Assembly (NCBI GenBank): GCA_023474215.1
Contig: JAMCYI010000001.1
Span: 2,836-66,835 of the forward strand
Length of the DNA: 64,000 bases
Source of the DNA: Patescibacteria group bacterium
GTDB lineage: Bacteria > Patescibacteriota > Minisyncoccia > UBA6257 > GWB1-50-10
Reading direction: 5' to 3'
Shown here in pieces: positions 607 to 42,439 of this stretch; the first letter of the stretch is position 1, and every line of letters starts with the position of its first letter. A model generated the notes under the pieces. It did no database searches. It saw only the letters and a list, made by a program, of their open reading frames with translations, and was not told where the DNA came from. Both the position numbers and the translations under genes were made by a program.

Positions 607-1986
607 ATGGACGAACCGCGCGTCTTCGGTGGCGAACCCTCGGAGGACATGCTCGCGCTCGGGTACGCCTGGGGCACGGACGAGAAGGGCGAGCTGTGGC
701 AGCTGAAAGCCGTCGCGCAGGAAGATCGCCTGCTCCATTTCCACGTGATCGGCGCTTCGGGCACTGGCAAGACGAAATTCCTAGAATACCTGATTGGGCA
801 GGACATCAAGAACGGATTCGGCTTCGGTGTGATCGATCCCCACGGCGACCTCATCAGGGACGTGAAAGAGTGGCTCGCCCTTGAGGATGGAGACCGCGGC
901 GAGCATGTTGTCCTCGTCGACCCCACCGACAAGAAGCGGACGGTCGCCTTCAATCCCCTCGAACTGGCTGACGGCACGGACGCGGCGCGGCAGGCACAGG
1001 AACTCGTCGTCGCCTTTAAAAAGATATACGAGGATTCGTGGGGGCAGCGGCTGGAAGGGATTTTGCGGAACACTTTGATCGCCCTCATCGAAAACCGCCT
1101 CACGCTCCTCGAACTACCCCTCTTCCTGAGGGACGCCGCGGTGCGCGCGAAGCTGCTCCGCAACGTGAAAAGCGAAACGTGCCGCGATTTCTTCGAAAAC
1201 GACTTCGAGAAATGGAGCGAGCGCACGAGGCCCGAATGGACCCAGTCGACGCTGAACAAGGTGGACGCGTTCCTCTCGGACAGCCGGATGCGGCAGATGT
1301 TCGCGCCGGCCAAGAGCTCGTTCAGCTTCAGGGATATCATGGACGGCAGGAAAATCCTGCTCGTGAACCTTTCTAAGGGAATCCTCGGCGAGGAGAGCAG
1401 CAAACTCCTGGGCTCCCTGCTCCTCGCGAAAATCCAGATGGCGGCCATGCAGCGGGCCGAAGTCAAGGAGGACGAACGGGTGCCTTTCTATTTATACATC
1501 GACGAGTTCCAGAACTTCGCCGAGGAGAGCTTCATGCGCATGCTGGACGAGACGAGAAAATACCGGCTCGCACTCACACTCGCCCACCAGCACCTGGAAC
1601 AGGTGTCGTTCAAACTCCGGCCGTCGCTCATGAACTGCGGGCTCCAGGCGTGCTTCCGCGTCGCCCCGGCGGACGCCGAGGTCCTCGCCAGAGGACTTTT
1701 CGCCGGATTGTACGCCAACATCAACGAGCGGGAGCAGTACGTCCAGCTCCTTCAATCGCTGGAGCCCCGCGCCTGCTTCGTGAGGAACAATGCAAGAGGC
1801 GGGATCATACAAATTTCCGTCCCTCCGCCTTTCAAGGGGCCGGAACGCGCCGGGCGGGAGGCGGACGATGACAGGATCGGCAGCCGCTACCTGCGGCGGC
1901 GCGAGGACATCGACAAGGAATACAGGGAAAGGCGCAGAACGCTCGTCGGTGGAGAGGACGAGGAGAATTTCTACGACTCTTTTTAA
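607..1986 (+). CDS. TrwB/TraD/VirD4-family (type IV coupling protein-like; FtsK/HerA superfamily) P-loop ATPase, soluble (no N-terminal TM)
   Basis: Walker A GASGTGKT followed by VIDPHGDL (cf. TrwB GATGTGKS...IVDPNGDM); Walker B YLYIDEFQNF; RKYRLALTLAHQ motif; paralog at 6804..8072. Confidence 0.7.
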   Translation: MDEPRVFGGEPSEDMLALGYAWGTDEKGELWQLKAVAQEDRLLHFHVIGASGTGKTKFLEYLIGQDIKNGFGFGVIDPHGDLIRDVKEWLALEDGDRGEHVVLVDPTDKKRTVAFNPLELADGTDAARQAQELVVAFKKIYEDSWGQRLEGILRNTLIALIENRLTLLELPLFLRDAAVRAKLLRNVKSETCRDFFENDFEKWSERTRPEWTQSTLNKVDAFLSDSRMRQMFAPAKSSFSFRDIMDGRKILLVNLSKGILGEESSKLLGSLLLAKIQMAAMQRAEVKEDERVPFYLYIDEFQNFAEESFMRMLDETRKYRLALTLAHQHLEQVSFKLRPSLMNCGLQACFRVAPADAEVLARGLFAGLYANINEREQYVQLLQSLEPRACFVRNNARGGIIQISVPPPFKGPERAGREADDDRIGSRYLRRREDIDKEYRERRRTLVGGEDEENFYDSF

Positions 1987-1989
1987 AAC

Positions 1990-2886
1990 ATGGGGATTGG
2001 TAAGGCGCATTTTATAAGGGAAGCCGAGGCGGCGCGCCGGAAGGCGCGCGAGGCGAAGGCGGAAGCCAAGACGGCGCGGCGGCAGTACGAGGAAACGGCC
2101 GCCGGACTCCAGCCGCGGATCGACGAACTGAGCCGCGAGGCGGACGAGCTGGCAGCGAAGTTTAAGCGGCTCTACGAAGAATCGCAGGAGCACTATGACG
2201 CGCGGGAAGGAGGCGCGGCGAAAGAATTAGCCGAGGAAGGCCACGAAGCGGAGGACCGTTGCCGTCGCCTGAACGCCGAAGCGAACGCTCTCCGGAGAGA
2301 GCTCAAGGGACTTTACGACAGATACGAAAACCTGAACAGGGAGGCGGCGCGGTTCGAGGAGGACGCCGAAACGGCCGAGGAGCAGGGGTGGCTCGTGCGG
2401 GAAACCGATGTGACGGGCTTCGGCGGGAGCGTCGCCAAGAGCAATTTCGCGGTCGAGGAATTCCTCGATACGTTCCCGCAGGGGTTGTTCCATAAGATAG
2501 AGCGCATCGAGTACCGCGCCGCGCACGAGGAGTACGAGAATGAAGGGGCGGAAGGGGTAACGAGCAGGCCGAACGAGTTCAGCCGCAAGAGGAAAATAAG
2601 AATATTCCCGCACGATGACGAGGCGCATTTCAAGAAAACCATAAGCCACGAAATAGGCCACGTCGCGTTTTACGAATTCCTGACATGGGAGGAAAAAGAC
2701 AGATGGGCGGCCCTGGCCAAAAAACTGGCGCTGGCCGGCAAGCGCATCAGTGGGTACGCTTGGAATTCCAACGAGCACTTCTGCGAATGTTTCTCCACGT
2801 TTAAAGTGGAGCCACAGGTACTAAAAAAATTCGACGAAGAGGTCTATACTTTTATGGAAGACACATTCAAATCATTGCCAAAATGA
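1990..2886 (+). CDS. coiled-coil protein with C-terminal zincin-like HExxH motif (putative metallopeptidase, SprT/WLM-like guess)
   Basis: N-terminal ~150 aa E/R/A-rich predicted coiled coil; SHEIGHVAFYEF HExxH motif with downstream NEHFCECF; ATG 4 nt after upstream stop. Confidence 0.5.
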   Translation: MGIGKAHFIREAEAARRKAREAKAEAKTARRQYEETAAGLQPRIDELSREADELAAKFKRLYEESQEHYDAREGGAAKELAEEGHEAEDRCRRLNAEANALRRELKGLYDRYENLNREAARFEEDAETAEEQGWLVRETDVTGFGGSVAKSNFAVEEFLDTFPQGLFHKIERIEYRAAHEEYENEGAEGVTSRPNEFSRKRKIRIFPHDDEAHFKKTISHEIGHVAFYEFLTWEEKDRWAALAKKLALAGKRISGYAWNSNEHFCECFSTFKVEPQVLKKFDEEVYTFMEDTFKSLPK

Positions 2887-3230
2887 AAAAACTGAAACTG
2901 TACGGGAAAAAAAGCGCATCGGACGAGATAGACCGCGAGAACGCCGTGGCGGTGATCTATGTTACCGGCAAGAAAGAGCTGATGGTTGAATCGGCGCATC
3001 CGGAGGTAAAGCGCGATATAGAAGAAGCCATTGTGGAGCTCATCAAAAAAGGCGGGCCGAAGGTAAGGCGGTGCGTTGAAAAAAATGGAGAAACAGTCAG
3101 AATCGCCACGCCACAGAAACTCGGCGATGCGGATTTTCTTGAAGCGCTGCGGGAAGAATATCCTTTCTGGTCAAGAGAGTTCAGCGGGTACGAGATAAAT
3201 CACTTGGTTTCAAGGGTGGCAGATGAATAG
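2883..3230 (+). CDS. hypothetical protein (115 aa), last gene of module (ATGA overlap with upstream gene)
   Basis: ORF track; 4-bp overlap coupling. Confidence 0.45.
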   Translation: MKKLKLYGKKSASDEIDRENAVAVIYVTGKKELMVESAHPEVKRDIEEAIVELIKKGGPKVRRCVEKNGETVRIATPQKLGDADFLEALREEYPFWSREFSGYEINHLVSRVADE

Positions 3231-3265
3231 AAGCCGCGGTTGCGGATTAAGAGCGCTTCTGCGTC

Positions 3266-4084
3266 TTACTGGCTCTTCGGCAGCACGACGTTCCCGAGGT
3301 CGATGTCGGCGTTGTCCATGGTGAACGACTTCTGCACCGTGCCGTAGCCGTCAGCCGAAAACTCGAACGTGTAGCTTCCGGCTGGAAATGATCCCAGACC
3401 GCCGTTTTGCAGAGCATTGGCCCAGAGAATGCCCATAGAACCGCAGAAGTCGCCGGCTCGCGAACTCGTTTTCAGGAACCACTCGTCCGAGATATTGCAG
3501 TTCACGGCACCCCACTTGATCCCGTCGAGCTTGGTGCCAACGGCGTTTACGACATTGACCCCGACACTGCCCCAGCGGGTGAAGACAATCTTTCCGAGAT
3601 CAATTCCTTGGGGCGGGAGATAAAATTTCTCCTCGACGGGGGTAAGCCCCGCAAGTCCTCCTTTCTCGGTATCGGGCACTTCCATCATGTACGTTCCGGG
3701 CGGGAGCGTCGTCGAAGGATCGCTCTCGCTCTTCGCCGTCATGGCGAGAACGCCGTCTTTTATCACGGCTCTCCCCGCATACTCGCCCAGAGAGTCGTAT
3801 ATCCGTACATCCGCGCCGTTATCCCACGGATCGGTGATGTCGTCATACGACTTGCCGTACTGGTCGACGACATACGCCGTGACCGTTCCCGGCTTGACCT
3901 GCGGAGCGACCACAGGTTTCGCGGCTGAGACGCTGCTTCCCGGTGCCGCCTGCTTCGGAACAATCGCGGATGGCTGGTTTCCGGCGGACTGGCTCGGGGC
4001 ACCGCTGAAGGGATGGGCGTAATAGACGGACGCGCCCGCGACCACCACGGCGACCGCTACGTAAAGAACTATTTTCGTTTTCAT
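3266..4084 (-). CDS. membrane-anchored/secreted hypothetical protein (272 aa)
   Basis: N-terminal hydrophobic helix MKTKIVLYVAVAVVVAGASVYY; G/S/T/P-rich extracellular region. Confidence 0.55.
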   Translation of the reverse strand: MKTKIVLYVAVAVVVAGASVYYAHPFSGAPSQSAGNQPSAIVPKQAAPGSSVSAAKPVVAPQVKPGTVTAYVVDQYGKSYDDITDPWDNGADVRIYDSLGEYAGRAVIKDGVLAMTAKSESDPSTTLPPGTYMMEVPDTEKGGLAGLTPVEEKFYLPPQGIDLGKIVFTRWGSVGVNVVNAVGTKLDGIKWGAVNCNISDEWFLKTSSRAGDFCGSMGILWANALQNGGLGSFPAGSYTFEFSADGYGTVQKSFTMDNADIDLGNVVLPKSQ

Positions 4085-4094
4085 ATATGTAGAA

Positions 4095-4505
4095 TTATTC
4101 CGACTTTTGCTTCTCCTCTTTCTCCTCCTCCTTTTTCGCCCTGTACGGAATCATAGCCGTGTTGATGCCCATCTTCGCCATCCTTCCCCCTCCGGAGAAA
4201 ATTAGGAAGACGAAGAGGTACTGGAGCAGGGCGTCGCCCAGCTTCTCGGCGTTTTGGCCGACGGCCGCGAGCAGTTCGACGCTGTTCGTCGCCCCGAAAC
4301 GGGCGCCGCTCTCCGTGGCTGCGCCCGGCGCGACGTTGATCTTCGCTTCGAGTATCGAGGGGATGTCGTTCCCGCGGAACACCTGATACCCGTACCAGAC
4401 GCCGAAGCCGACAACGACCGCTCCGGCCGCGATGAGGATCAGGCTCAAGATGGCGTAATATTTTTTCTCGTGTTTCATGTCATTGAGTGTTGCCGACGGT
4501 CTCAC
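4095..4505 (-). CDS. small membrane protein
   Basis: TM helix YYAILSLILIAAGAVVVGFGVWYGY; K/E-rich tail. Confidence 0.45.
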   Translation of the reverse strand: MRPSATLNDMKHEKKYYAILSLILIAAGAVVVGFGVWYGYQVFRGNDIPSILEAKINVAPGAATESGARFGATNSVELLAAVGQNAEKLGDALLQYLFVFLIFSGGGRMAKMGINTAMIPYRAKKEEEKEEKQKSE

Positions 4506-4683
4506 TGTTCAACTCCGAAAGGCACTTCTCGACTTCGCTCGCGGGAACGGTGAACGCGGCGTATGGCTTGTACTCCTTGAAAGCGCAGTCTTCGTAATTG
4601 GGCGCGGGAGCGCTTTTGAGAAAAAAGGCGACAGCGACGAGCGCAGCCACAGCTATCGCTATGAGCCAGATAAGGGATTTCAT
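4480..4683 (-). CDS. small secreted protein (67 aa, signal peptide)
   Basis: MKSLIWLIAIAVAALVAVAFF N-terminus; operon position. Confidence 0.35.
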   Translation of the reverse strand: MKSLIWLIAIAVAALVAVAFFLKSAPAPNYEDCAFKEYKPYAAFTVPASEVEKCLSELNSETVGNTQ

Positions 4684-4916
4684 GTTCTAGACTCCTCCTT
4701 TGTCCGCGCGAGCCGGTTGATCAGGAGGCACACCGCGAAGTACAGCCACAGGGCGTTCCAGAATATCGCGGGCGCTATGAATTTCCGCGGATTATCGGAC
4801 GACAGGAAAAAAATGAATACCCCAGCAATCAGAAAGACGGCGAACAGCACCCAGTACGTAATGTGACGCTTTTTGGAAAGCGGAACTCCGAAAACTAGAC
4901 GTAATACTTTGTTCAT
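4680..4916 (-). CDS. small membrane protein (2 TM)
   Basis: two hydrophobic helices; 4-bp overlap with downstream gene. Confidence 0.4.
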   Translation of the reverse strand: MNKVLRLVFGVPLSKKRHITYWVLFAVFLIAGVFIFFLSSDNPRKFIAPAIFWNALWLYFAVCLLINRLARTKEESRT

Positions 4917-5178
4917 GTGTTCCTAACAAATAAACCCGACCTTTTTCTCTGGCCGGGTTCGACAAACTGCTCTGTGTGAAAACACAAAGCTCCCAGCCAG
5001 TGATGCCTTGCGGCACCCATACAGGTTTCCCCGTATGACCAGTAACGGAGCTCTGACTAGGAGCTTTCTATTCGTTACTGGTTTTTTGAACCCTGCCGCA
5101 GGCTTCCCTACGGGTTAGGTCTCATGTTTAGTTGTATGGAGTCAATATTAACACACTGGACAAGGAGGGCAAGACAAC

Positions 5179-5207
5179 AAAACGGCTACCTAAATATAGC
5201 CGTTTTT
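5179..5207 (+). terminator. hairpin aaaacggcta-cctaaata-tagccgtttt followed by TGC; bidirectional-looking terminator
   Basis: perfect 10-bp stem with A/T tracts on both sides. Confidence 0.5.
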
Positions 5208-5385
5208 GCTTAAAACTCATCTCCTGCGGATGTATAGATAACCGACGAGCAGTCCTAACACAAAGCCGAGGAGGGAGAAATCTATCTTCTCCACGGTTAT
5301 AAAGGAACGCCTGATTCGCTGAAGCGACCAGGAATTCCTGATTGCACTTCAGCGACCTTTGGTTATTTATACAATGAAAACACGA

Positions 5386-6594
5386 TTATGTCAATTGCTG
5401 GAATATGCGACCCATCCTAACGGGGACCACTGCCCCATTCCTCCAAACGCGAAGAGTTACGGGGATATTATTGTTTTTGCGTAGAACGTCGATTAGATAT
5501 TTAAGGGAAAAATGCTGCTCATCAATAATATCCTCATTCACCCCGACAATGACATCCCCTGCTCTAAGTCCGAATTTCTCAGCGATTGATCCAGGTACAA
5601 CGGCGGGGTTTTTCTTGTTGTCCTGGAGGAGCGCACCATGGTCAATTGGTAAATTTCGCTCATTGGCGATACCCGCTGTCAGTGGAATATAGTGTATCCC
5701 GAGCTGTCGCTGGTGCAAATACTCTCTCTTCATCTCTCTAATCGCTTTAGACACTTCGTTCTTAGCTAGCTGTTTCTCGTACTTAGCTATCATCTGTTCC
5801 TCATCATACCCGAACATCTTATAAAACAATTCTTTGCATCCAAGTTTTATCCCTTCCCAAAATCCGACTTCCCGATAATATCCCCGGTGGTGTAACCGAT
5901 CGCCTATCTGTTTGAGAGACGTTTCTAGACGGTCTATAGACTCATCAATTAGTTCTTCTGAACGGTAAAAGGCAGTCCGTTCGTCGTATTCAACGTAGAT
6001 TTCTCTTTGCCATATCGTCTTATAAAGTTCACCTCTAATATTTTGACTCAGGTAGGAGTATCTTATTCGAAACGCCAAATCCTCGAGATGTTGAGACGAT
6101 TCCAGCGTTCTCCGGCCTCTCGACAGCTCAAGATATTCTTTCTCATCATCCGTAAGGGGATATTTCTTACGGAACAGTCCGTCTATTGGTCTACCGAGAT
6201 ACTTATAGTAAGAGCTGCGAGAGTTACCGAGCATTTTTTCCAATGGCTCAACGTAGCGATCAAAAAGGGTGTCTTCCTTGTCAACGTCCTCTCTGGAATC
6301 GTCGTCAAAAAACTCGGAGAGGCTAAGGAGCAAATCCATGACAGGATTGATAATCTCCCTAATAGTCTCCTTCCTTACCTCGCCTTTTTCTTGTAAATCC
6401 GCTGCAGCAGATTCCAATAGTTTCTTGTGTGCTTCTCTTAACTGCTGGATACCAGCGTTGACGATTTCGCTGTCTTTCTGCAGGAGGCGAACTTCGATGT
6501 CTCTTTTGGCGTTTCTCCAAACTACAATAACGCCGAGTACGCCAGCGAAAAATGCGATTACTATGTTAACGAGTAGGTTGAGTAAAGAACCCAC
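5386..6594 (-). CDS. membrane-anchored protein with C-terminal PDZ domain (402 aa), low-GC gene
   Basis: N-terminal TM LLVNIVIAFFAGVLGVIVVW; C-terminal GDVIVGVNEDII...VTLRVWRNG PDZ-like; AT-rich codon usage vs neighbours. Confidence 0.6.
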   Translation of the reverse strand: MGSLLNLLVNIVIAFFAGVLGVIVVWRNAKRDIEVRLLQKDSEIVNAGIQQLREAHKKLLESAAADLQEKGEVRKETIREIINPVMDLLLSLSEFFDDDSREDVDKEDTLFDRYVEPLEKMLGNSRSSYYKYLGRPIDGLFRKKYPLTDDEKEYLELSRGRRTLESSQHLEDLAFRIRYSYLSQNIRGELYKTIWQREIYVEYDERTAFYRSEELIDESIDRLETSLKQIGDRLHHRGYYREVGFWEGIKLGCKELFYKMFGYDEEQMIAKYEKQLAKNEVSKAIREMKREYLHQRQLGIHYIPLTAGIANERNLPIDHGALLQDNKKNPAVVPGSIAEKFGLRAGDVIVGVNEDIIDEQHFSLKYLIDVLRKNNNIPVTLRVWRNGAVVPVRMGRIFQQLT

Positions 6595-6778
6595 ATTCCT
6601 ATTGTATCACGCCTTCTTTGATTTTCTTCCTTGGAAAATGCTATCCTTCTCCTGTCATTACCCGGAATCTTCGGGCATCGCCCGGCTTTCCGGAGTGGGG
6701 CGTCGAGAGTCAACGCTTCGCTCTCCCCCGCGCGGCTTCTCTCAGGCCGCGCTGGGGATGGAATGAGCTGGTACAATG

Positions 6779-6803
6779 AAAGGGTCGTCAGCCCTTTTTT
6801 ATT
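6779..6803 (+). terminator. hairpin aaaggg-tcgtcag-cccttt plus T-run abutting TTG start of paralog ATPase; terminator/attenuator-like
   Basis: stem-loop followed by TTTTTTATTTT. Confidence 0.4.
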
Positions 6804-8072
6804 TTGGAAATCCTCTCCATCGGCAAAGCCGCCTCCCGCTCAGGAAGCGTCGAGTTCGGCATCAAATCTCCCGACCGGCGGCACCACATGTACCTCGTGG
6901 GCCAGACCGGCACCGGCAAGTCCACCTTCCTCAAGAATGCGGCGGTTCAAGACTTGCGGGCTGGGCGCGGCCTTGCGGTAATCGATCCTCATGGCGCGCT
7001 TGTCGAGGACATCCTGCGGTTCATTCCCAGGCGCCGGACGGGCGAGGTCGCGTATTTCAATCCGACTGACGCCGATCATCCCGTCGGCCTTAATATCCTC
7101 GAGGCGAGGAGCGAGAACGAGCGGAACCTGGTCGCCTCGTCCCTCATCTCGATTTTCAAATATCTCTGGAAGGACTTCTGGGGTCCTCGGCTGGAGCATG
7201 TTTTCCACAATGCAATCCTCGCCCTAATGGACACGCCGGATTCGACGCTCCTCAGCGTGTACCGGATGCTTGCCGACGACGCCTTCCGCGCGAAGGTCGT
7301 CGGGAGGGCGAAGGACCCGGTCGTGAGGTTCTTCTGGGAAGAGGATTTCGAGAAATATCCGGCGCGGTTCAAGAAGGAAGTGACGTCGCCGATCCAGAAC
7401 AAGATCGGGCAGCTCCTCACGAACAGCTGCATTCGGAACATCGTCGGGCAAGCCGAGAGCACGCTCGACCTGCGGTTCCTGATGGACAACCAGAGGATTC
7501 TCTTTGTAAATCTCGCCAAAGGCGTGATCGGCGAGGATAAGGCAAACCTCCTAGGATCGGTGCTCGTGACGAAACTGTACCTCGCGGCGCTCGAGAGGCA
7601 GACAGTGCCGGAGGACAAGCGCCGGGATTTCTACCTTTATATCGACGAATTCCAGAATTTTTCGACGGAAGCGTTTCCGTCGATGTTGTCCGAATCCCGC
7701 AAGTACCGGCTGAACCTGATTCTGGCGCACCAGTATCTCCGCCAGCTCCCGGAGAGCGTGCGCCACGCCGTCTTCGGGAACGTCGGGACGCTCTCCGCCT
7801 TCCGCGTCGGCGGGCTCGACGCAGAGGAGCTGGCCAAGGAATTCCAGCCGGACTTCGAGCGGGACGATCTCACCCATATCGAGAACTACCGCTTCTGCAC
7901 AAGGCTCATGATCGACGGCAAGCGGTCAAAGCCGTTCTCGGCTGAAACGCTCCCGCCTCCCCGCCTGCGGGGCGACGAGGCGGACGCCGAGACGGTCATA
8001 AGGATTTCTCAAGAGCGTTTTGCTTCAAAACGTGAAGACGTGGAACAAGCGGTCGAAAAATGGTTCGCCTGA
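6804..8072 (+). CDS. TrwB/TraD/VirD4-family P-loop ATPase, paralog of 607..1986 (apparent TTG start)
   Basis: GQTGTGKST...VIDPHGAL, YLYIDEFQNF, RKYRLNLILAHQ; roughly 40% identity to first copy by eye. Confidence 0.7.
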   Translation: MEILSIGKAASRSGSVEFGIKSPDRRHHMYLVGQTGTGKSTFLKNAAVQDLRAGRGLAVIDPHGALVEDILRFIPRRRTGEVAYFNPTDADHPVGLNILEARSENERNLVASSLISIFKYLWKDFWGPRLEHVFHNAILALMDTPDSTLLSVYRMLADDAFRAKVVGRAKDPVVRFFWEEDFEKYPARFKKEVTSPIQNKIGQLLTNSCIRNIVGQAESTLDLRFLMDNQRILFVNLAKGVIGEDKANLLGSVLVTKLYLAALERQTVPEDKRRDFYLYIDEFQNFSTEAFPSMLSESRKYRLNLILAHQYLRQLPESVRHAVFGNVGTLSAFRVGGLDAEELAKEFQPDFERDDLTHIENYRFCTRLMIDGKRSKPFSAETLPPPRLRGDEADAETVIRISQERFASKREDVEQAVEKWFA

Positions 8073-8418
8073 GGCGAATCCGTTTTTCGCGTCGCGATCT
8101 CGGCTGCGCGGCCTCGAGCTTTTTATTTTGCCTTCCCCCCACCGCGCGCAGCGAAAAGAGAAAAGCTCCGGCGAAGGAGAGCGGAGGCCCGAGGATGCCC
8201 CGAGCCCGAAGCGGAAGCGAGGGGTGAAGGGGCAATGAGGACATGTTGTCGGGGGCCGGAGCCGCAAGAACGGAGAGAAAATATTCCGTCGTTTGCGGGC
8301 GGATCCGCCTTCCGGAGGCAGTCGTTCCGGAACGACCCCTTGAACGACCCCTTTGCGAATCAGAAATTTCTGGTAAAATAGGTTCTGATACCGGCGCGTA
8401 AACTCACTAAACCAAAGG

Positions 8419-8446
8419 CCGGTGACTCTTGTCACCGGTTTTTGGT
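8419..8446 (+). terminator. rho-independent terminator ccggtgac-tctt-gtcaccgg + TTTTT
   Basis: perfect 8-bp GC stem and T-run; flanked by direct ggttctgat. Confidence 0.7.
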
Positions 8447-8632
8447 TCTGATGTTTTCAAGGAGAGGATAAGAACCTTTGAAAGGGGGTCGGGGAAGAGC
8501 GGAAGCGCTTCCCCGTGGAGGAATGAGTCCGCGAAAGCGGACGGACTCAAAACCGAGGGTTTTGAGGGAGCGAAGCGACAGGTTCCATATCCTTCCCTGC
8601 ACACACTTTGAAAAATCGGCCTTCTAAAACTC

Positions 8633-8673: not shown

Positions 8674-9070
8674 AGGTCGACATTCAACCATAACCCTAGG
8701 CGATAAGAGCACTTCTAGGTGGTATAATAACAATGACTCAGGGGGGGTCAGTTTTGTTTATCGCGAAAACAAGATAGCTATGAAGTTACCAAAGAGGGTA
8801 GATGTAAAAAATTCAAAAGGTCGATATTATATTCTAACCTAACTCTCTTTTCACTACCATAAAGTGGGGGGGCGGCTAAGGTAAACATTATGAGTAAAGA
8901 AAACCCTCGAACGGAGCGGGAAAAGAAAAGAGCCCGTGAGGAAAAACAAATAAAAAAGACGGGGGACAAATTAAAGGCAAAGCGTCTCCAGCGGCATCAG
9001 CATCCGCTACCGCCACATTAAAGGTGTACATTGAAGAAATAAAAGCCGGATTAACTTGTTAACAAGTCAT

Positions 9071-12311: not shown

Positions 12312-12549
12312 GTTGTATGTTTTTAATTCTAAACCACCTCGTAGCTAGAGGGTAGTGGGAAATCCTCCTGCCCGTGCGCGGGAGTGGCGGGGCAGAGGCA
12401 GAACCGCGCGGAGAATGAACCATGATGTGCTAAGGAGGGAAAAATGGCGGAAGGGAAATTTTCTCCCGCCTTATCTTGTGCGCATCTTTCTCTTAAGATA
12501 ATTTCATAACGCTCCCCGTACTGAATTCGGATGTGTTAGAATATATGCA

Positions 12550-26692: not shown

Positions 26693-26723
26693 GTGTTGGG
26701 AGTGGTGGTATAATGGTACATAA

Positions 26724-26756
26724 GAGTGGTGAGAAGTGGATAAGTTTGTGGATAAC
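26724..26756 (+). promoter_or_regulatory. three GTGG(A) direct repeats at about 10-bp spacing upstream of mraZ; candidate MraZ operator, with TATAAT at 26709-26714
   Basis: gaGTGGtgag aaGTGGATAAg tttGTGGATAAc; resembles MraZ-box architecture. Confidence 0.55.
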
Positions 26757-26788
26757 TCGCCAATCTGGGGAAAACTGAGATTTTCAAC

Positions 26789-27220
26789 ATGATACTGGGA
26801 GAATACAAACACAGCTTAGATATTAAAGGTCGGGTGGCGGTACCGGCCAAATTCAGGGAAAAAATAGAGGCCGGTGCCATTATTACGAGGGGCTTGGACA
26901 AATGCTTGTTCATGTTCGGCGCAAAAGAGTGGGAAACGCTCGTTCAAAAATTGATGTCGCTGCCATTGGCTCAATCGAACTCTCGAGCGTTCGTGCGTTT
27001 GATGCTCGCAGGAGCATCGGACGTCACGTTCGATAATCAGGGGAGAATCTTGATCCCCGAATATTTGCGGAAATATGCCGGACTCAAAAAACAAGTCGTC
27101 TTGACCGGCCTCTTTAACAGAATTGAAATTTGGGACTCGGCCGAATGGGACACTTACAAAACAAAGACCGAGTCATCTTCAGATGAAATAGCCGAGAAGC
27201 TCGGGGAACTGGGAATATAG
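26789..27220 (+). CDS. mraZ: transcriptional regulator MraZ
   Basis: MILGEYKHSLDIKGRVAVPAKFRE; two MraZ repeats. Confidence 0.9.
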   Translation: MILGEYKHSLDIKGRVAVPAKFREKIEAGAIITRGLDKCLFMFGAKEWETLVQKLMSLPLAQSNSRAFVRLMLAGASDVTFDNQGRILIPEYLRKYAGLKKQVVLTGLFNRIEIWDSAEWDTYKTKTESSSDEIAEKLGELGI

Positions 27221-41643: not shown

Positions 41644-41764
41644 AAAATCGTGCTAAAATAGGCGGAAGGCCGGGCAATCCGGCATACCGAACGCCCGCAC
41701 GGTTGCGGGCAAATGTAAAGTTCAAAATACAAAAGTCAAAACTGAAATTAAAAACTAAAAAACA

Positions 41765-42439
41765 ATGAATGGAAAGTTATACGTCGTGGGAACACCCATC
41801 GGCAATCTGAAAGACATCACGGAAAGGGCAAAGGAGACGCTCACAAGCGTCGATTTGGTACTTGCGGAAGACACGCGGGTCACATCAAAACTCCTAAACC
41901 ATCTCGGCATTAAGAAGCCGATGTGGCGGTACGATGAATACGCAAAAAGCGATCTCTATGAACGGATCCTCGAGTTCCTCGGCGCAGGAAAGGAAATCGC
42001 GCTCGTAACGGACGCAGGAACGCCCTTGATTGCCGACCCCGGATCGAAACTCATTGCCTTCATACGAGAAAGGACGCCCGAAGTGAAGATCGTCCCGATC
42101 CCGGGACCATCGGCCATCGTAACCGCGCTTTCCGCGTCCGGCATGAACGCCGACCGATTCACATTCGCCGGATACCCGCCGCATAAGAAGGGGAGGCAAA
42201 CATTTTTCAAAACCTTGAAACAGATCGAAATGCGACCGGTCGTCATATATGAATCGCCGCACCGGCTTCAAAAAACGTTCAACGACATGGAAAAGATCTG
42301 CGGCATTGAACATCCGATAACCGTGGCAAAAGAATTGACGAAAATACACGAAGAGATTTGGAAGGGGACGCTCGAAGAAGCAAAAAGACATTTTCAAAAA
42401 GAAAAGGGGAAAGGTGAATTCGTCATCATCATACCGTAA
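41765..42439 (+). CDS. rsmI: 16S rRNA 2'-O-methyltransferase RsmI
   Basis: KLYVVGTPIGNLKDITERA...LAEDTR. Confidence 0.85.
   Translation: MNGKLYVVGTPIGNLKDITERAKETLTSVDLVLAEDTRVTSKLLNHLGIKKPMWRYDEYAKSDLYERILEFLGAGKEIALVTDAGTPLIADPGSKLIAFIRERTPEVKIVPIPGPSAIVTALSASGMNADRFTFAGYPPHKKGRQTFFKTLKQIEMRPVVIYESPHRLQKTFNDMEKICGIEHPITVAKELTKIHEEIWKGTLEEAKRHFQKEKGKGEFVIIIP

Follow-up and report, generated by a model that had tools for sequence, protein, structure and literature searches.

A conserved structured RNA and a putative nested promoter ahead of a TrwB-like ATPase gene in Patescibacteria

A 64,000-nucleotide stretch of a Patescibacteria group bacterium (contig JAMCYI010000001.1, positions 2,836 to 66,835, of assembly GCA_023474215.1) was analyzed around the gene T4CP2, which encodes a soluble VirD4/TrwB-like P-loop ATPase of a Patescibacteria-wide family. 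We call the whole stretch the window, and coordinates refer to it unless a related locus is named; such loci are labelled L001 to L167, and P0001, P0003 and P0007 are listed homologous proteins. The DNA directly upstream of T4CP2 specifies a new, previously uncatalogued conserved structured RNA of one Patescibacteria clade that is absent from Rfam. The RNA holds a strict position before the ATPase gene, promoter motifs accompany both, and the conserved N-terminus of the protein begins at a weak start codon, TTG at position 6804 in the window. A hairpin followed by a T-run separates the RNA from this codon. With moderate confidence, we read the arrangement as two nested transcription units, namely a small-RNA gene that would end at the hairpin (6778-6805) and the ATPase gene, whose own promoter appears to be nested before that terminator.

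A structured RNA tied to the ATPase gene

Relatives whose ATPase has 59-77% protein identity to T4CP2 conserve the non-coding DNA ahead of the gene. A covariance model of this region, R1, was built from 22 sequences and scores the window RNA at 66.7 bits (E 1e-13). It matches every locus with at least 59% protein identity that had upstream sequence to examine, including five independent loci outside the seed (L103, L163, L165, L166 and L167), and the matches always lie directly upstream of the ATPase gene on the same strand. No match was found in about 135 more distant loci, nor was there a second copy within the window.

The window sequence alone folds to a four-way junction plus terminator at -73.8 kcal/mol (z -4.28, 0 of 200 shuffles); here and below, z-scores are relative to shuffled sequence, with 200 shuffles each for the RNA fold, the hairpin and the terminator. 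The junction is built from four helices, P1 to P4 (Table 1), and the loops of P3 and P4 are complementary, forming an L3-L4 kissing pseudoknot that is GAGAG:CUCUC in the window and GGGGA:UCCCC, GGAGA:UCUCC or GAGAA:UUCUC in other loci. In the model-based alignment, 87.5% of cells are paired, as against 37-54% when the partners are slid by 1-3 columns. Changes on both sides were seen in 33 of the 44 pairs, three of them in the pseudoknot, and 0 of 500 shuffles reached the observed values. RNAalifold, run on the same model-fitted alignment, recovered P1-P4 with compensation in 28 of its 36 predicted pairs. P1 is almost invariant in sequence and P2-P4 are free to vary; the invariant nucleotides of the RNA are found in P1 and the two kissing loops, with none conserved in the junction.

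Searches of Rfam 15 with the window (E up to 5), 20 related loci (at gathering scores) and two relatives (E up to 10) returned no credible family for the RNA at 6653-6768, and literature searches found no description of a Patescibacteria RNA at this locus. There is some likeness to csRNA (Rfam RF02379), in that L090 has a sub-threshold match over P4, the linker and the terminator, and a P4 loop of sequence CUCCU resembles an anti-Shine-Dalgarno sequence. However, this match reaches 41 bits where the gathering score is 57 and covers the 3' half only, the window has no match, and the RNA is not a member of that family.

The hairpin, the promoters and competing readings

The initial annotation of this DNA had pointed out a hairpin and T-run abutting the TTG codon, and both are real. 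The hairpin stem (6778-6798) has 8 pairs, of which 3 are G-C, and is followed by UUUUUUAUUUU; it folds at -8.4 kcal/mol (z -2.9), an energy matched by 3 of 200 shuffles. On its own it is weak, because 12 terminator-like sites occur in 5 kb where 6.1±2.5 are expected. What makes it a convincing candidate is its conservation in relatives: a hairpin with an A-tract and a U-tract follows the RNA and a short linker in all related loci examined except L084, where the stem is weak. The stems vary from locus to locus with the structure kept (GGGACGC/GCGUCCC, GGGCGAG/CGCCC, GAGACGUG/CACGUCUC). The element combines a stem-loop and a U-tract, as an intrinsic terminator does, with covarying stems, and in every locus it comes after a promoter-driven RNA.

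The extended -10 motif TGNTANAAT was found 16 times in the window, against an expectation of 4.1±2.1 copies, a count that 0 of 100 shuffles attained. For nine of these copies, the start codon of an open reading frame (ORF) of at least 60 amino acids (aa) lies 7-9 nucleotides (nt) downstream of the motif. Instances in which TGNTANAAT lies 7-9 nt before a start codon are at 12534, 13316, 15235, 51884 and 56200 on the plus strand and at 6609, 16472 and 63343 on the minus strand. Shine-Dalgarno sequences were not visible upstream of 17 window genes, and the closest relatives also carry leaderless genes; this genome seems rich in leaderless mRNAs. The window gyrB gene has TGATACAAT, a 36-nt leader and CCCUUAUUUUUU-AUG, the same design as the proposed ATPase leader.

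Because start codons lie at that distance in nine of the 16 TGNTANAAT copies, transcription was taken to start 7-9 nt after the -10 motif, a rule calibrated on the leaderless genes of this genome. By this rule the structured RNA would start at about G6654. Its near-consensus promoter in the window (Table 1) has a counterpart at the same place in all relatives' loci read, with TTGACA or TTGACT, a 17-nt spacer and TGnTATCTT, and in the relatives GUUUCAUUACC follows 7-9 nt after the promoter. The ATPase gene has a putative extended -10 promoter of its own, TGGTACAAT, and a TACAAT, TATAAT or TAGAAT box is found at the same distance from the stem in 13 of the 13 closest relatives read. The predicted start of the ATPase transcript, 6784-6786, falls inside the 5' arm of the hairpin. 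The ATPase mRNA therefore could not form the hairpin, which most likely terminates the small RNA rather than attenuating the ATPase mRNA. The segment 6784-6830 is unstructured and folds no better than its shuffles.

In the arrangement that we propose, the σ70-type promoter at 6618-6647 would start the first transcript, whose initial ~115 nt would fold to the four-way junction, with its bulged A in P1 and its L3/L4 kissing contact, and which would end at 6778-6805. The second transcript would start from TGGTACAAT, located in the linker that joins the RNA body to the terminator, giving an ATPase mRNA with a ~20-nt unstructured U-rich leader, no Shine-Dalgarno sequence and TTG 6804 as its first start codon. 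The T-run would then have two uses, tailing the terminator of the RNA and supplying the U-rich leader of the ATPase gene. In the most economical form of coupling, polymerases that started at the strong RNA promoter would occlude the ATPase promoter, with some read-through. Both transcription starts, termination at the hairpin and any regulatory coupling are what we infer from these motifs.

Initiation at TTG, as the initial annotation had supposed, agrees with the protein comparisons. TTG 6804 is the sole in-frame ATG, GTG or TTG between the stop codon at 6777 and ATG 6888. Initiation there adds 28 N-terminal residues (MEILSIGKAASRSGSVEFGIKSPDRRHH), which are conserved across more than 100 orthologues and include a segment IGK..FGIK.DRRxH; Met1 of P0003 and P0007 (MEILGLGK) aligns exactly with TTG 6804; and Pfam DUF87 aligns from residue 6. 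In 27 loci of the clade read at the conserved start position, the codon is TTG in 14, GTG in three, ATG in nine and no canonical codon in one, and in more distant orthologues it is almost always ATG. We take TTG 6804 to be the true start of T4CP2. It is highly improbable that the start is mis-defined, so that translation would begin at ATG 6888, or at ATG 6776 by way of a +1 frameshift or a one-base error in the T-run, with the hairpin irrelevant. Gene callers did take ATG 6888 (public call P0001, 394 aa, begins at this internal Met), at least 13 of 120 listed homologues, P0001 included, are called from an internal Met, and deletion of one T would put ATG 6776 in frame. However, these shorter calls are very probably truncated: the 28 residues ahead of Met29 are conserved in the paralogue as well as in orthologues, and initiation at Met29 would leave four residues before the P-loop. 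As for ATG 6776, it lies within the -10 box and upstream of the predicted transcription start, and is absent in most relatives (ACAATAAAGGG). Two independent assemblies of this genome, L001 and L002, encode the same protein with equal R1 scores, a comparison that did not extend to the T-run base by base. A frameshift or sequencing error from ATG 6776 was rejected on these grounds.

In a competing view, the RNA is the 5' leader of the ATPase gene, and the hairpin and U-tract form an expression platform gated by a ligand or by the state of a protein. This is a serious rival, though on balance rather unlikely. The order of elements, with a promoter, a covarying fold closed by P1, a terminator and a start codon, always before the same gene, is the classic riboswitch layout, and riboswitches with loop-loop contacts (purine, lysine) share with it a P1-closed junction, covarying kissing loops and a terminator before the gene. 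The covarying structured domain expected of a riboswitch is thus present, but in the window the fold and the terminator are separated by a perfect match to the genome's own promoter motif (TGGTACAAT), with its predicted start inside the stem; the situation is less clear in L092-type relatives, which lack a convincing promoter following or bypassing the terminator. Ligand pockets of riboswitches usually sit in the junction, whereas here the junction has no conserved nucleotides and the invariant ones are in P1 and the kissing loops. In L083, L086, L088, L090 and L166 the P1 3' strand could also pair with a linker UUUCAU into an alternative hairpin, which would speak for a switch, but this hairpin does not overlap the terminator, the linker with the putative switching copy is missing in the window, and no overlap of terminator and antiterminator was found. 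There is also no Rfam match and no known ligand. Of the two roles first proposed for the hairpin, attenuator or mis-defined start, neither is the best reading: it is a functional signal rather than an artefact of start-site assignment, and the conserved RNA that it appears to close and the extended -10 element before the stem speak against an attenuator.

Several points weigh against two nested units. Both transcription starts and the 3' end of the RNA are predictions from sequence, and the window hairpin, at -8.4 kcal/mol, is weak compared with those of the relatives. L092-type loci, which make up the more distant half of the clade, have a poor -10 in the AT-rich box before the hairpin, and this box is far enough upstream that the full terminator falls inside the mRNA; the gene would then need read-through, which favours an attenuator-like arrangement in those loci. 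The strict linkage of the RNA to one gene is what would be expected of a cis-regulatory leader. Several relatives repeat the 5' strand of P1 (UUUCAU) just after P1, a copy that might pair with the P1 3' strand instead, giving an alternative hairpin like those of switching RNAs.

The RNA might also be a cofactor or partner of the ATPase rather than a regulator, with P1 and its bulged A binding the hexamer and the loops linking RNAs into a ring, as phi29 pRNA does with the phage packaging ATPase. The resemblance to phi29 pRNA lies in the length of ~120 nt, the paired ends, the multi-way junction, the two covarying complementary loops and the place beside a gene for an ASCE-type translocase. In keeping with such a role, the RNA is strictly adjacent to a gene for an FtsK/HerA/TrwB-type ATPase, has its own strong promoter and terminator, keeps P1 sequence-invariant with P2-P4 variable, and carries complementary covarying 5-mers in two loops. 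On the other hand, the ATPase family occurs throughout Patescibacteria and the RNA was detected in one sub-clade only, covariation cannot separate intramolecular from intermolecular loop pairing, and the Rfam pRNA family gave no match. The locus is moreover chromosomal and bacterial rather than phage, the junction four-way rather than three-way, and there is no similarity in sequence or model. We consider such a cofactor quite improbable. Somewhat less so, though still unlikely, is the wider proposal that the RNA is a functional partner of the TrwB-like ATPase in one of two forms, either a new riboswitch-type gating sensor or a pRNA-like hexamer-binding ring RNA.

The ATPase pair and the sequences around it

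T4CP2 has a Walker A motif (GQTGTGKS) at residue 33 and a Walker B motif (FYLYIDE) at residue 276. Like VirD4/TrwB coupling proteins, it matches Pfam TrwB_AAD_bind (PF10412) above the curated cut-off (50.4 bits, cut-off 20.5), with weak matches to TraG-D_C and DUF87, and its sole PDB sequence match is TrwB (1E9R), limited to the surroundings of the P-loop. It differs from these proteins in having scores far under the cut-offs for all NCBIfam conjugation models (for example, 37.5 where 250 is needed) and in lacking an N-terminal membrane anchor; the maximum 19-residue hydropathy is 1.01, with 32 residues ahead of the P-loop. A hydrophobic segment is likewise absent from paralogue 1 (T4CP1), where the maximum is 1.37. 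The context of T4CP2 is chromosomal and housekeeping; elsewhere the window has the features of an ordinary chromosome, among them gyrB, ABC and Znu transporters, tRNAs and a ribosomal L10 leader. Those parts of the window that were annotated showed neither VirB4 nor a relaxase. In some relatives a Replic_Relax gene is present two or three genes upstream. For this genome, the idea of a relaxase gene immediately upstream was considered and dropped, as L001 304-1191 has no Replic_Relax match. L167 carries a diversity-generating retroelement (bAvd and reverse transcriptase, 1359-2749) 3-5 kb upstream of its ATPase gene, which is not present at the window locus.

A homology search with T4CP2 gave at least 7,999 scored relatives, and those that are named are Patescibacteria, Parcubacteria or Minisyncoccota; the named ones among the best 80 loci from the genome collection and among the best 80 from the metagenome collection fall into these groups too. 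According to passages of a survey of Patescibacteria, there are 5,713 VirD4-like homologues in 2,918 genomes, or about two per genome; most of them are distant from virB4, and they may have been exapted to serve a different role (PMC12102498). This number matches the conserved arrangement of two paralogues at the window; the same passages of the survey do not mention a paired arrangement, non-ATG starts or an associated RNA (PMC12102498).

T4CP1 and T4CP2 have 41% identity over 330 aa (E 5e-74) in an alignment that begins at T4CP2 residue 19, ten residues ahead of Met29, the residue encoded by ATG 6888; the initial estimate of about 40%, reaching upstream of the first in-frame ATG, is close to this. 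Orthologues of T4CP1 (47-58% identity) were found near T4CP2 in most relatives searched, usually upstream and on the same strand. The gap between the two genes is 198-260 nt in L163, L165, L084 and L090, 0.5-3.4 kb in other loci and 4.8 kb in the window. Since both paralogues are conserved, close together and on the same strand in most relatives, they are best seen as an old gene pair, usually adjacent, with the DNA at 1990-6594, where GC drops to 0.45 at 5-6 kb, as a later lineage-specific insertion. The suggestion that a module duplication or recombination had placed the paralogues on either side of an island is not upheld by their close spacing in several relatives.

LOOT RNAs occur in four independent genomes, the window included, each time in the variable region that precedes the RNA-ATPase module. 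The other copies are at L088 3385-3502, L166 1706-1824 and 5582-5700, and L167 4689-4807, and in L166 a LOOT RNA lies ~125 nt from the structured-RNA start. The window and L088 copies each lie immediately 5' of a small gene, and these two genes are homologous (78 aa, 4680-4916 in the window).

Table 1. Features of the ATPase locus, in window coordinates
Feature	Position	Strand	Details
T4CP1, soluble VirD4/TrwB-like ATPase (paralogue 1)	607-1986	+	459 aa; Pfam TrwB_AAD_bind 45.6 bits, T4SS-DNA_transf, DUF87
Lineage-specific insertion (putative) between paralogues	1990-6594		DUF1771 protein, small unknown proteins, LOOT RNA, PDZ protein (Pfam)
LOOT RNA (Rfam RF03000)	5002-5121	-	88.6 bits; gathering score 46.4
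Putative promoter of structured RNA	6618-6647	+	-35 TTGATT 6618-6623; 18-nt spacer ending TGC 6639-6641; -10 TATCCT 6642-6647; read from sequence
Structured RNA core	6653-6768	+	Four-way junction, ~115 nt; from fold, covariance model R1 and covariation
P1	6655-6662 with 6760-6766	+	Bulged A6660; UCAUU-A-CC pairs with GG-AAUGA
P2	6663-6692	+	Bipartite hairpin
P3	6693-6723	+	Loop GAGAG 6705-6709
P4	6724-6758	+	Loop CUCUC 6739-6743
Putative extended -10 promoter of ATPase gene, TGGTACAAT	6769-6777	+	Between RNA and hairpin
Putative intrinsic terminator, hairpin and U-tract	6778-6805	+	5' arm 6778-6785, loop 6786-6790, 3' arm 6791-6798; U's run into TTG
T4CP2, soluble VirD4/TrwB-like ATPase (paralogue 2)	6804-8072	+	422 aa; TTG start
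15-base-pair hairpin	8055-8088	+	UGA stop in loop; outer arms CGAAAAATGG/CCATTTTTCG conserved in close relatives
Decayed remnant of T4CP2 terminator, with T-run	8098-8130	+	Relatives: GCTCA-GGCC-atgc-GGCC-TGAGC
Purine-rich conserved non-coding stretch	8135-8320	+	Begins with C-run CCCCCCAC; blocks in L083, L163, L084, L165, L086, L166, L167
Triple-arm element	8321-8353	+	Palindrome GTCGTTCC/GGAACGAC plus exact tandem copy of 3' arm (GAACGACCCCTT twice)
Putative extended -10 promoter, TGGTAAAAT	8371-8379	+	Conserved as TGnTAAAAT or GnTAAAAT in relatives
Predicted short transcript, ~65 nt	8386-8452	+	From TGGTAAAAT to strong terminator; Rfam P26 sub-threshold, 24 bits

On the 3' side of the gene, the initial annotation had described some 350 nt of GC-rich, hairpin-dense sequence as a long structured 3' untranslated region ending in a strong terminator. 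The terminator is there (8410-8447; 17 pairs, z -5.7, 0 of 200 shuffles), but the rest of the description is unsupported. The GC content of 8073-8418 is 0.59, equal to that of coding sequence (0.596); the segment 8131-8362 folds no better than shuffles on either strand (z -0.7 on plus, -1.5 on minus); and RNAalifold on the relatives' 3' region gave a covariation term of about zero on either strand, so that a global conserved fold was rejected. In relatives, moreover, a strong T4CP2 terminator (-16 and -21 kcal/mol, z -2.8 and -3.3) follows the stop codon, and beyond it are an AT-rich spacer, with a plausible promoter in several loci, and a separate downstream promoter. The window copy of this terminator is decayed (-6.5 kcal/mol, z +1.8), which makes read-through of the ATPase transcript to 8447 possible in this genome, and the window spacer is 19 nt with no promoter. 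A fair description of the 3' region is a conserved composite non-coding region.

Among its parts, the last ATPase codons (..EKW..) pair with the conserved CCATTTTTCG just past the stop. The purine-rich stretch is 59-67% purine on the plus strand and 200-300 nt long in relatives. The 5' arm and both 3' copies of the triple-arm element covary in four versions (GTCGTT/AACGAC, GTCACTC/GAGTGAC, GTCAATC/GATTGAC and CCCCTTCAAA/TTTGAAGGGG). The element is also present in L083, L084, L165, L086, L166 and L167, with a loop of 2-13 nt and 20-45 nt upstream of the conserved TGnTAAAAT promoter; it might work at the RNA level or, for example as an oriT-like site, in the form of single-stranded DNA. Four further proposals for the 3' region were rejected: a CsrA-type GGA sponge at 8143-8320 (GGA enriched over dinucleotide shuffles in 0 of 7 loci); specific pairing of the upstream RNA with the purine-rich region (duplexes within a locus are energetically no more favourable than those formed across loci, and a 16-nt complementarity, I5, is attributable to chance); AACGACCCC as a genome-wide uptake sequence or REP-like repeat (16 copies, 16.7 expected); and an invertible segment between CCCCCCAC at 8135 and GTGGGGGG at 8864-8871, whose two copies are no more than chance.

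The equivalents of window 8072-8350 are a hotspot of assembly breaks, at least 18 of ~30 clade contigs ending 0-280 nt past the ATPase stop, including this genome's Logan contigs, L001 and L002; a repeat, hypervariability and difficult sequence are candidate causes. Further downstream on the plus strand, a perfect TGGTATAAT promoter at 8720-8750 is directly followed by a hairpin and T-run (8734-8750), and a 43-aa lysine/arginine-rich ORF (8890-9021) stands behind GUGGGGGGG, a motif that recurs in the relatives' downstream non-coding RNA-like region. About 400-750 nt past the ATPase stop, L084, L086, L165 and L167 have a hairpin with a 22-nt loop, AUAACAC-UUGCCCCACACCACCCGUGCGC-GUGUUAU, which is identical in L086 and L167, covaries in its stem in L084 and L165, and has two GUGGGGGUA motifs ahead of it. 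This region looks like a further structured RNA of ~330 nt, and no homologue of it was recognised in the window. Elsewhere in the window, extended -10 promoters with long leaders (75 and 106 nt) before the next ORF are found on the plus strand at 26706-26790 and 41651-41765, the second of them GC-rich; these may be further leader RNAs.

Implications for Patescibacteria

The genome appears to rely on extended -10 promoters and leaderless mRNAs, and a gene promoter nested within the terminator of an upstream RNA gene would be a compact design that illustrates how signals can be overlaid in compact genomes. Where a terminator-like hairpin abuts a start codon, attenuation should not be the default reading. 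In this very common Patescibacteria gene the start is probably often mis-called, as TTG and GTG starts without a Shine-Dalgarno sequence get missed. The RNA itself is a complex one, with unusually clean covariation and a pseudoknot, and is tied to a poorly understood conserved gene pair of ultra-small episymbiotic bacteria. Orphan RNAs as well defined as this one have on repeated occasions opened the way to new riboswitches or ribonucleoproteins. If the RNA were indeed a partner of the ATPase, the near-universal and enigmatic 'coupling proteins' of Patescibacteria would acquire an RNA-dependent mechanism.

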